Program-made: the position numbers and the translations under genes | The notes under the pieces: generated by a model | Told to the model about the DNA's origin: nothing | The model's database searches: none | What the model saw: the letters and a program-made list of their open reading frames with translations, nothing else | From: a virus | Lineage: Duplodnaviria > Heunggongvirae > Uroviricota > Caudoviricetes | Strand: one strand, 5' to 3' | DNA length: 18,355 nt | IMG/VR virus record: IMGVR_UViG_2534682080_000004 | Location: 1-18,355 of that record | Shown here: positions 5,423 to 5,891 of the stretch, one piece after another | Numbering within the stretch: position 1 is the first letter of the stretch | How the letters are laid out: every line of letters starts with the position of its first letter

Positions 5423-5470
5423 TTTGCTGCTCCTCATCATATCGACCCTGCAAGGTCGGTTAGTTTCTCC

Positions 5471-5559
5471 ACAAAACAGAGAAGAACACCTGCGGTGACT
5501 GCCGCCCGGATGGATTGGGTTATGAGCCCGTCGTCCGGTGATGCTCTTCTCTGTTTTGT
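5471..5559. other. Long perfect inverted repeat (15-bp arms ACAAAACAGAGAAGA / TCTTCTCTGTTTTGT) within a 470-bp structured non-coding region
   Basis: Arms at 5471..5485 and 5545..5559 with an extended imperfect stem; further hairpins downstream (GGTACCAGC...GCTGGTACC 5570..5603; CCGGG..CCCGG). Confidence 0.5.
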
Positions 5560-5831
5560 AAAAAGGACGGTACCAGCCGGAAGCAAGGGTACAAGCTGGT
5601 ACCGCCAAGACTACACACAGCATAAAGTTGTGGTGCCGGGTGCCTCCCGGTGCCTGGCGAAGGTTGCACACCAGGCGGGTGGGTATCCACAGAAGGTCGA
5701 CTGTCAGCCTCAACCTTAACCCGCGTGCGCTGAGCCGCATTCACCACAACGCTAAGGATTCTCTCTGGTTGAAAATACTTAGCTGTTATGTGCCTGCTTT
5801 TAGCCACATCAGGCGAGGTGGACCTGGTTAT

Positions 5832-5877
5832 TCCCCAACAACAAGGATTCGGTTAATCTGGATATCCCCAACAACAA
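5832..5877 (+). repeat. Two perfect 13-bp direct repeats TCCCCAACAACAA upstream of the 172-aa gene
   Basis: Copies at 5832..5844 and 5865..5877, 33 bp apart, ending 15 bp before the GTG start at 5892. Confidence 0.6.
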
Positions 5878-5891
5878 TAAGAGTATTCAAT

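Follow-up and report, generated by a model that had tools for sequence, protein, structure and literature searches.

A structured non-coding early-left leader with STnc100-type and DicF-type RNA modules in an Escherichia coli lambdoid prophage

The window analysed here, i.e. the whole stretch of 18,355 nucleotides (positions 1 to 18,355 of the IMG/VR record IMGVR_UViG_2534682080_000004), is part of an Escherichia coli chromosome that carries a lambdoid prophage at thrW, and we report on the 469-nt gap between two of its genes (positions 5423-5891). The proA gene ends at position 1254, and a tRNA-Thr gene occupies 1369-1441. The left arm of the prophage encodes yfdT-yfdS-yfdR-yfdQ-yfdP on the minus strand, with yfdP (5060-5422; ATG at 5422-5420) bordering the gap. 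On the other side there is a rightward open reading frame (ORF; 5892-6407, plus strand, 171 aa, phrog_1244), the start of which was set to the GTG at 5892 since a TGA directly follows the ATG at 5890, and further to the right lies a LexA-type cI gene (6622-7296, minus strand) with cro beyond. We conclude that the gap is a genuine non-coding leader on the minus strand, that it belongs to the early-left (yfdP...xis/int) operon of an SfV/ST64B-type lambdoid prophage, and that it consists of known parts in a new arrangement, i.e. diverged relatives of the STnc100 and DicF RNAs together with a long hairpin of the processing type, rather than being a new kind of element. Its location upstream of yfdP, the first early-left gene, agrees with the leader position proposed in the original prediction, a note made from the letters of the window alone.

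The same gap is present with 95-99% identity in the phages SfV, SfII and SfIV and in many E. coli prophages, the Salmonella phage ST64B carries a copy with approximately 78% identity, and parts of it are found in Klebsiella, Cronobacter, Citrobacter and Hafnia phages. Among 5426 complete E. coli genomes, 3088 have a match to the gap and 1324 carry at least 80% of it; existing annotation of the gap shows either nothing or a broken gene. The GC content is 0.54-0.56 compared to 0.40-0.49 in the flanks. Two 25-nt arms (5471-5495 / 5535-5559) are 84% complementary, with the outer 15 nt (5471-5485 / 5545-5559) forming a perfect inverted repeat, and two 10-nt arms (5568-5577 / 5595-5604) are 100% complementary and enclose the 9-bp GGTACCAGC stem. 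Folded as minus-strand RNA the gap reaches -188.4 kcal/mol (z -5.06; none of 100 dinucleotide shuffles was as good), and folded as plus-strand RNA -169.3 kcal/mol (z -3.43). Considered by part, the long hairpin described below has a z value of -7.57 (-48.3 kcal/mol), the terminator module with its seed -4.51 and the core -2.2. The GC-rich composition, the 15-bp perfect repeat, the 9-bp stem and the high degree of structure claimed in the original prediction, which had suggested the comparison with shuffled controls, are thus all borne out.

Long open frames are present on both strands, translations of the gap match phrog_3651 and phrog_33599, and PGAP calls a "frameshifted hypothetical protein" at the homologous place, all of which could suggest a decayed gene, or a plus-strand small protein such as MDWVMSPSSGD.... 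However, no Pfam family was found for the gap ORFs, the homologous core is read in different frames in E. coli and ST64B, and in-frame stops interrupt the plus-strand frame in three related loci (L005, L203 and L205). Moreover, in the short part that is shared, most changes at the amino-acid level are non-synonymous, whereas the nucleotide changes are compensatory in helices. The open frames are long because GC-rich hairpin DNA is poor in stop codons, and the PHROG matches and the PGAP pseudogene call are annotations of chance open frames. A protein-coding remnant was rejected on these grounds (no Pfam family, PHROG hits that annotate open frames, frames that are not conserved), and we give a decayed gene or a small protein next to no probability. 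The roughly 470 bp thus stand as non-coding, as originally described, and the gap very probably does not represent the degraded known gene that had been named as the outcome that would overturn that description.

The central part of the gap is a 122-nt pseudoknotted domain (5749->5628, minus strand), here referred to as the core. The Rfam family STnc100 (RF02076) matches the minus strand at 5780->5557 with 43.4 bits (E 4.7e-8 for 701 nt scanned); this is the sole significant Rfam match in the gap, and there is one match in the whole window (E 1.2e-6). The comparison with Rfam put forward in the original prediction therefore supports relatedness to a known RNA family, but with a score that falls just under its gathering threshold of 47 bits; the homologous places in SfV, phiES15 and ST64B score 35-41 bits with the same model. 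The core is closed by the stem P1 (UUGUGGUG/CACCACAA; 5749-5742 / 5635-5628), after which follow a GAAU junction and a GCGGCUCAGCGCACGCGG segment, and it includes the hairpins Pe (GCCUGGUG/CGCCAGGC; 5676-5669 / 5659-5652) and Pf (CCGGG-AGGCA-CCCGG; 5650-5636). A pseudoknot is formed by AAGGUUG (5717-5711) and CAACCUU (5666-5660), the second strand being located in the Pe loop. Several characteristics of STnc100 are recognised in the window copy: the closing stem GUGGUG/CACCAC with its GAAU junction, Pf next to the 3' strand of the closing stem, the penultimate hairpin with a pseudoknotting loop, and a single-stranded tail with an intrinsic terminator (5627->5607 unpaired; hairpin 5606->5566; U5 5564->5560). 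The first internal STnc100 hairpin, CCCCCU-nn-GCGG-n-GGGG, is missing and GCGGCUCAGCGCACGCGG is present instead, where cmscan marks non-canonical pairs; nor does the window copy have a sigma70 promoter of its own that starts at the closing stem.

An exact search with the 22-mer CACCGGGAGGCACCCGGCACCA, using one genome per species, gave 110 stretches, almost all of them from Enterobacterales genera, and a scan of viral contigs gave further copies. The core family divides into two clades, a canonical clade, which reads GUGGUGAAUCCCCCU..GCGG..GGGGC and has a variable tail and a terminator at its end, and a "GCGGCU" clade, which is defined by the GCGGCUCAGCGCACGCGG replacement and to which the window copy belongs. 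A sigma70-like site (at least 9 of 12 matches) precedes 28 of the 97 canonical copies, and in 20 of these 28 its -10 element ends 6 nt before the closing stem. None of the 45 GCGGCU copies, window included, has such a site before P1; they are embedded in longer transcripts, and since they have no promoter of their own the RNA would be made from an upstream promoter.

Conservation of the core was quantified using 92 representatives with less than 88% identity. An alignment of 22 cores generated with MAFFT was structurally inconsistent in the variable middle, and Pe, Pf and the pseudoknot were therefore measured with anchored scripts. Pf is paired to 99.8% across the representatives, with CG, GC and UA exchanges, where the invariance of P1 and Pf is partly due to how the sequences were collected. 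A perfect 5-bp Pe helix at a fixed 3' anchor is present in 82 of the 92 (mean 30 and maximum 43 when the 3' strands were swapped) and is built from 40 distinct 5-mers. The mean longest pseudoknot helix is 6.52 bp, compared to 4.26 bp with shuffled loops, and comprises 53 distinct pairings, e.g. AAGGCUGG/UCAGCCUU in phiES15 and GAGCCA/UGGCUU in Kp4866-6. The pseudoknot is thus family-wide: 6-9 nt located 3' of the first hairpin form base pairs with the penultimate hairpin's loop (loci L008-L236), and the consensus structure line that cmscan prints for RF02076 does not include it. The junction and loop nucleotides GAAU and GGAGGCAC are invariant across many genera.

STnc100 and PasD are expressed, Hfq-associated prophage small RNAs (sRNAs) with differing seeds (PMC8550237; bioRxiv 10.64898/2026.05.13.724894; PMC5331693), and canonical family members have been detected as RNAs of approximately 160-210 nt (PMC5331693). 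Identity with PasA-D was considered and rejected given that PasB is located among structural genes and PasA, PasC and PasD near Q and lysis genes, i.e. at a different locus. A search of the 18-kb window with the STnc100 model found no second core copy in the PR or late operons. As to other RNA genes, T-arm-like sequences (GGTTCGATTCC) are present upstream of the core in Klebsiella- and Buttiauxella-type relatives (L203 1800-1925; L005, L056, L057 and L134), and just one relative, L203, has an Rfam tRNA match (40 bits, 126 nt) approximately 130 nt upstream of the core; ARAGORN found no tRNA in seven related loci, and calls none in L005, L056, L057 and L134. The PR operons of SfV, ST64B and mEp460 carry isrK and C4 antisense RNA genes (L002 7010-7198, L004 5732-5920 and L007 5698-5886; 64-84 bits), both of which the window lacks.

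On the minus strand the core is followed by a DicF-type module. It consists of an unpaired, single-stranded linker with a putative seed (CUUUAUGCUGUGUGUAGUCUU; 5627->5607), a terminator hairpin (GGCGGUACCAGC...GCUGGUACCGUC; 5606->5566) with 12 GC-rich bp and a 17-nt loop, and a C followed by UUUUU (5564->5560), the U tract of the terminator. A terminator scan missed this hairpin because it allowed loops of 3-8 nt only. The A/U-rich 5' end of the linker is, judged from its base composition, a possible RNase E site. Copies from E. coli, Klebsiella, Citrobacter phiNP and Cronobacter phiES15 have the seed sequence UGCUGUGUGUAGUCUUGGCGG in conserved form, and the terminator stems vary as complementary pairs (GUCGGCGUC/GACGCCGAC in ST64B, GGCGGUUAUCCA/UGGAUAACCGCC in Kp4866-6 and GCCCGC/GCGGGC in phiES15) with the CCUUUUU tail kept. 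In close relatives (L236 and mEp460) another seed, AGCCACUGCUU, replaces it on the same body and terminator.

Like DicF (RF00039), the module has a 3' hairpin that starts with GGCGGUA and is followed by a U tract (UUGGCGGUACCAG...CUGGUACCGUCCUUUUU), and it is located in a repressor-controlled early-left operon within a long untranslated stretch. The sequences that pair with DicF targets (5' UUUCUGGUGAC for xylR and the hairpin-loop region for ftsZ and pykA) are absent; the 5' part in the window is UGCUGUGUGUAGUCUU and the hairpin loop differs. Scores with the DicF model form a series, 76.7 bits for K-12, 41.1 for L140, 38.1 for L143, 29.1 for L203, which shares the architecture of the window, and 19.4 for the window (E 0.13). 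Specifically, the true dicF position in L140 and L143 is taken by the window seed UGCUGUGUGUAGUCUUGGCGG, with a GCGGCU-type core and a dicB-type ORF directly downstream. The homologous element lies ahead of kil in phiES15, and in L124, L140, L143 and K-12 a dicB-type ORF follows.

In the Qin prophage of K-12, the 174-nt dicF-dicB spacer (L239 2936-3109, corresponding to E. coli K-12 MG1655 1649435-1649608) is itself a GCGGCU-type core (L239 2947-3087; STnc100 34.1 bits, E 1e-5), with a closing stem of 18 bp (2946-2963 / 3074-3091) as compared to 9 bp in the window. DicF has two 3' ends, where Rho-independent termination yields a 53-nt and RNase III a 72-nt RNA (PMC5069750, PMC9438474). By coordinate count the end of the 72-nt form falls at 2883+71=2954, give or take a few nt, i.e. 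in the middle of the 18-bp stem, and the published RNase III end would thus map into the closing stem of the Qin core. By analogy, the 20-bp stem located 3' of the terminator in the window may be the functional counterpart of this 18-bp stem. The element is absent from the CPS-53 prophage of K-12, where homology begins only at the Shine-Dalgarno sequence (SD) of yfdP.

This 20-bp stem (5559-5540 / 5490-5471) is the base of a three-way-junction hairpin of 89 nt (5559->5471, minus strand). One of its arms, GACGGGCUCAUAACCCAAUCCA (5532->5511, closed by CCGGA/UCCGG), is nearly invariant and the second, GCGG-CAGUCA-CCGC, is freely variable. The module is present in SfV, ST64B, Kp4866-6, mEp460, phiNP and Flotzy, and its shape makes it a candidate RNase III site or a barrier ahead of yfdP. 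The yfdP 5' untranslated region (UTR; 5472->5423) follows with a conserved GUGGAGAAACUAAC (5472->5459), a hairpin CGACC-UUGCAG-GGUCG (5458->5443) and the SD GAGGAG (5435->5430), and the same set of GUGGAGAAA, a hairpin with a UUGCAG-type loop and an SD precedes the yfdP homologues in Buttiauxella- and Pantoea-type copies.

For this 3' half (terminator, long hairpin and UTR hairpin) pairing was counted for the structure described above on an alignment of 12 sequences. Of the alignment cells 96.1% are paired, compared to 89.2% in shuffles (none of 500 reached the observed value) and 44-52% in slid registers, and ten pairs are changed on both sides, which was seen in 7 of 500 shuffles. The cells of the long hairpin are paired to 97.9%, with exchanges of A-U and C-G, G-C and C-G, and G-C and A-U, and in the UTR hairpin (helix 5) four of five pairs are changed on both sides. 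Compensatory changes in Salmonella, Klebsiella, Cronobacter and Citrobacter phages thus support the helices, and the homologue comparison advised in the original prediction shows a structure that is conserved in related prophages. Minus-strand G-U pairs are present at several positions, e.g. in 7 of the 12 sequences at columns 118/179 and in all 12 at columns 121/176; since the plus strand would have A-C mismatches at these columns, the selected structure is that of a minus-strand RNA, which the folding energies also favour.

The same data bear on whether the inverted repeats act as DNA, e.g. by forming a cruciform, by binding a protein or by marking a recombination boundary between modules of the phage. 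The boundaries of similarity blocks in mosaic phages (5400-5608, 5609-5821 and 5783-5885) coincide with the module junctions, and the apex of the hairpin and a 31-nt motif at the right edge of the gap are invariant without covariation, as might be expected for such sites. Pairing is, however, kept via G-U intermediates on one strand only, a U tract follows the GC-rich hairpin, and there is homology to two expressed RNA families, and we regard a role as DNA as very improbable.

The interval from yfdP to cI contains a single strong promoter-like site, a likely PL at 6582-6555 (minus strand; TTGACA-16 nt-CATAAT, 11 of 12 matches, flanked by ATGTACC repeats), beyond the rightward ORF and hence outside the gap, directly preceded by the cI terminator (6610->6591); SfV has a homologous PL position. 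A leftward PL RNA would comprise, in order, a conserved element of approximately 75 nt, a hairpin with a boxA, some 550 nt antisense to the rightward ORF and the gap, and no minus-strand terminator was predicted between PL and the gap. The PL-proximal element (6548->6470, minus strand) begins approximately 10 nt after the predicted PL start and includes the 30-mer AACAGGCAGGACGCCCACGAAGUAGCCGCC (6535->6506), a hairpin CCUGGA...UCCAGG and GGAUGAUUCG. The 30-mer is identical or has one mismatch after four PL/operator types (window and SfV; ST64B; Kp4866-6; phiNP and Flotzy), and the hairpin keeps its pairing through U-A, G-C and C-G exchanges. The element is present once per locus in 46 loci. 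Its position was checked in L126, L226, the window and five phage leaders, and in each of these it precedes a GCGGCU-type core that has the same strand. It has CGAAC...CAGGAUGA in common with putL and putR of HK022 at similar spacing (numbered against PMC9378689), and as a lead from these sequence features it is a more plausible candidate than the core for a put-like, N-independent antiterminator. The second feature is a hairpin (6466->6445) followed by a perfect boxA CGCUCUUUAACAA (6445->6433, minus strand), the only exact match to the 12-mer GCTCTTTAACAA in the window; on the plus strand the same hairpin with its T-run is the terminator of ORF 5892-6407. This boxA may shield the untranslated antisense stretch from Rho.

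The original prediction had proposed, among other options, that the gap is a put-like cis-acting antiterminator RNA. For the core this would mean a processive antiterminator that is either put-like, acting on RNA polymerase, or nut-like, i.e. boxA plus a structured "boxB equivalent", and allows polymerase to pass the DicF-type terminator and later ones on the way to xis/int. As in the original prediction, no N-like gene was found between cI and yfdP, and the window core lies just upstream of a terminator. Related leaders carry several terminator-like hairpins (ST64B; SfV annotation), and a boxA-like GCUCUUU is present at a fixed distance (-12/-13) from P1 in 9 of 30 GCGGCU-clade contexts and in none of 91 canonical ones. 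A complex fold with GAAU and GGAGGCAC invariant across genera would also be unusual for a mere sRNA body. On the other hand, Qin-type loci place the core downstream of the DicF terminator, the canonical members have their own promoter with a terminator directly after the core (PMC5331693) and, being seen as RNAs of approximately 160-210 nt, do terminate. The put RNAs of HK022 are protein-independent processive antiterminators that overcome terminators located downstream by way of the beta' zinc-binding domain. A put RNA is approximately 70 nt with two stem-loops, where putL begins at position +3 of the PL RNA and another copy is found downstream of PR (PMC9378689). The core has neither this architecture nor the place directly after PL or the second copy: it is a 122-nt pseudoknot approximately 800 nt from PL with one copy per window, and the STnc100 model gave no match at E<=10 in the 27.6-30.1 kb region of HK022 that holds putL and putR. 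Nor does it form a lambda-type nut site (boxA with a 15-nt boxB hairpin within approximately 10 nt, N downstream), as no boxA adjoins the window core. The put-like reading of the gap thus finds no support, and we judge an antiterminator role for the core in either form to be improbable. A CAGGATGA at 9091 has no put-like context.

There is also a slim chance that the pseudoknotted core acts as a four-way-junction domain that binds RNA polymerase with Nus factors, the ribosome or a small ligand, and decides in cis between DicF-type termination and read-through into the recombination and excision genes. If so, it would represent a new class of conditional antiterminator or sensor that is common to hundreds of enterobacterial prophages, Qin of K-12 included.

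The right edge of the gap has a different character. Directly before P1 the minimum free energy (MFE) structure includes a spacer hairpin GCUAAG-U-AUUUUC...GAGAAU-C-CUUAGC (5783->5751, minus strand), which has no promoter consensus (0 of 45 clade copies have a sigma70-like site); relatives have other hairpins or the boxA-like GCUCUUU at this place. Beyond it, a 31-nt junction motif CCACCUCGCCUGAUGUGGCUAAAAGCAGGCA (5821->5791, minus strand) comprises two interleaved inverted repeats with stems that are invariant among copies. It is conserved in SfV, phiES15, Kp4866-6, Kp4884-1, Hafnia Pocitis76, Lelliottia L014 and Flotzy, always beside the 5' end of a rightward ORF embedded in a leftward operon. 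It may form an RNA pseudoknot in the leftward transcript or, alternatively, act as promoter/operator for the rightward ORF. Two exact 13-nt direct repeats TCCCCAACAACAA (plus strand; 5832-5877, spaced 33 nt) lie just upstream of the GTG at 5892 and are also present in Kp4884-1. The 31-nt motif with two TTGTTGTTGGGGA repeats marks the junction between leftward operon and rightward ORF, also in L237 (2501-2550) and L238 (2501-2605), and the rightward ORFs at this junction belong to different families, e.g. sieB in the Hafnia phage Pocitis76. The ORF at 5892-6407 is convergent with PL, has an N-terminal half that looks coiled-coil and two CxxC pairs, and has a homologue in Klebsiella phage Kp4884-1. 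Candidate sigma70, sigma54 and sigmaE promoters picked by eye at 5781-5830 are doubtful, as several homologues deviate in the spacing or in key bases and no promoter was detected there by the scan.

Given this edge, the gap or a part of it might instead serve the rightward ORF as a promoter/operator with a long 5' UTR on a plus-strand transcript. The constant position of the motif and the TCCCCAACAACAA repeats 5' of rightward ORFs of varying family (Hafnia sieB, Kp4884-1, phiES15 and SfV) is in keeping with this. In phiES15 and SfV the plus-strand edge of the motif may carry an extended -10, and the plus-strand fold also beats its shuffles. But the plus strand of the window gap has no sigma70-like site, such a role would cover positions 5791-5891 only, and the G-U pairs are specific to the minus strand. 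Moreover, the core, terminator and long hairpin are linked to yfdP or kil and to the leftward operon, and ST64B and phiNP have them in the absence of any rightward ORF. We consider a function for the rightward ORF unlikely.

Two other characteristics of the prophage were noted. The integrase gene (1459-2621, minus strand) is apparently split into overlapping ORFs (1459-2247 and 2163-2621), and strain 504239 has a single 372-aa integrase gene at the same place; the prophage may be unable to excise. Just before the lysis cassette, a low-GC block (12839-15231, minus strand; approximately 33-35% vs approximately 50% around it) encodes ORFs of 404 and 391 aa that oppose the surrounding gene direction, and probably represents an acquired moron, perhaps a defence system.

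Taken together, we lean towards the view that the gap is an sRNA-generating attenuator and processing cassette, a reading to which we give a little better than an even chance. Direct observation covers the modules with their homology, the conservation of base pairs, the strand and the non-coding nature; termination, processing by RNase E and RNase III, dependence on Hfq and action in trans are suggested by analogy with dicBF of K-12 and the STnc100/PasD sRNAs. Leftward transcripts, most likely from PL and hence made when CI repression is lifted, would largely stop at the DicF-type terminator and release an RNA of at least approximately 190 nt with body, seed, hairpin and U tail. RNase E may then trim the A/U-rich linker to give a DicF-like sRNA of approximately 65 nt that could act with Hfq on host mRNAs. 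In RNA that reads through the terminator, RNase III would cleave the long hairpin within its 20-bp base stem. Cleavage there would part the sRNA and the yfdP mRNA and define the 5' end of the latter. The layout of body, variable single-stranded tail and terminator matches that of the canonical STnc100 members, which supports the sRNA reading. Two further options of the original prediction, an sRNA and a processing or terminator element, accordingly fit: the former given a sub-threshold STnc100-type body and a DicF-type seed that intermediates link to true DicF, and the latter given the intrinsic terminator and the RNase III-type long hairpin.

Several data weigh against this cassette. The matches to both RNA families stay below their gathering scores (43.4 vs 47 bits for STnc100 and 19.4 vs 48 bits for DicF), and the position of the core relative to the terminator varies, being before it in the window and after it in Qin. 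With no more than 5 U in the U tract, termination may be partial, and transcripts from PL must first cross approximately 550 nt antisense to the rightward ORF. The search for a target yielded none: RNAduplex predicted pairing of the seed with the ftsZ leader that was no better than for shuffles, a comparison that lacked discrimination, as real DicF did no better, and the proposed RNase III cleavage follows from the shape of the long hairpin only.

STnc100, PasD and DicF are already known, and the gap falls within the known biology of prophage sRNAs and leaders. New with respect to the sources searched are the GCGGCU clade with its sub-threshold scores, the joining of this clade to a DicF-type tail, its occurrence between dicF and dicB in K-12 and the family-wide pseudoknot, which would improve the STnc100 family model. 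The identification of the K-12 spacer as an STnc100-type core links two RNA families that have been treated separately. The modular make-up of the gap also suggests that, in the evolution of prophage sRNAs, a conserved structured body is shuffled with seed and terminator modules that are interchangeable. The gap is also present in Shigella serotype-converting phages and in Salmonella ST64B. Its recognition provides a testable model for how phages that lack N control early-left expression and supply the host with an sRNA.

With respect to known systems, the long hairpin recalls the RNase III-sensitive hairpin reportedly described in the lambda N leader by Kameyama et al. in 1991, in that both are long, nearly perfect hairpins just upstream of the ribosome-binding site of the first PL-operon gene. 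The window hairpin has no sequence similarity to it, however, is a three-way junction with one invariant arm, and its cleavage is a prediction. As in boxA-dependent Nus antitermination (rrn and lambda nut), a perfect boxA CGCUCUUUAACAA is present in the leader with a hairpin before it, which corresponds to the rrn boxB-boxA order, and some relatives of the core carry a boxA-like motif directly before the core. In contrast to these systems, the boxA of the window lies outside the gap, approximately 680 nt upstream of the core, with a function predicted from sequence, and unlike lambda nut there is neither a lambda-type boxB nor an N gene. The put system of HK022 likewise operates in an early-operon leader with no recognisable N gene and with a structured RNA upstream of terminators, but differs from the 122-nt pseudoknotted multi-helix core, which is present in a single copy approximately 800 nt from PL; the PL-proximal element 6548->6470 is closer in position and shares CGAAC...CAGGAUGA.

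Compared to STnc100 and PasD, the window copy scores lower (43.4 vs 47 bits), has GCGGCUCAGCGCACGCGG in place of the second hairpin CCCCCU..GCGG..GGGG, lacks a promoter of its own, has a DicF-like tail and is located in an early-left leader, whereas the former are found near Q, stx or lysis genes (bioRxiv 10.64898/2026.05.13.724894; PMC12370729). It shares with them the closing stem, the GAAU junction, the identical 22 nt CACCGGGAGGCACCCGGCACCA, the pseudoknotting penultimate hairpin, the single-stranded tail followed by an intrinsic terminator, and the location in Enterobacterales prophages. Relative to DicF and dicBF, the order of the modules is inverted (core to DicF-like module in the window, DicF to core in Qin), the seed is UGCUGUGUGUAGUCUU and not UUUCUGGUGACGUUU, the hairpin loop through which DicF pairs with ftsZ has another sequence, the DicF model reaches only 19.4 bits, and the downstream gene is yfdP and not dicB. 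Both nevertheless reside in an early-left operon under an immunity repressor, have a GGCGGUA... hairpin with a U tract, adjoin an STnc100-type core and have a double-stranded RNase III-type site nearby, and intermediate variants carry the window seed at the true dicF position (PMC5069750; PMC9438474).

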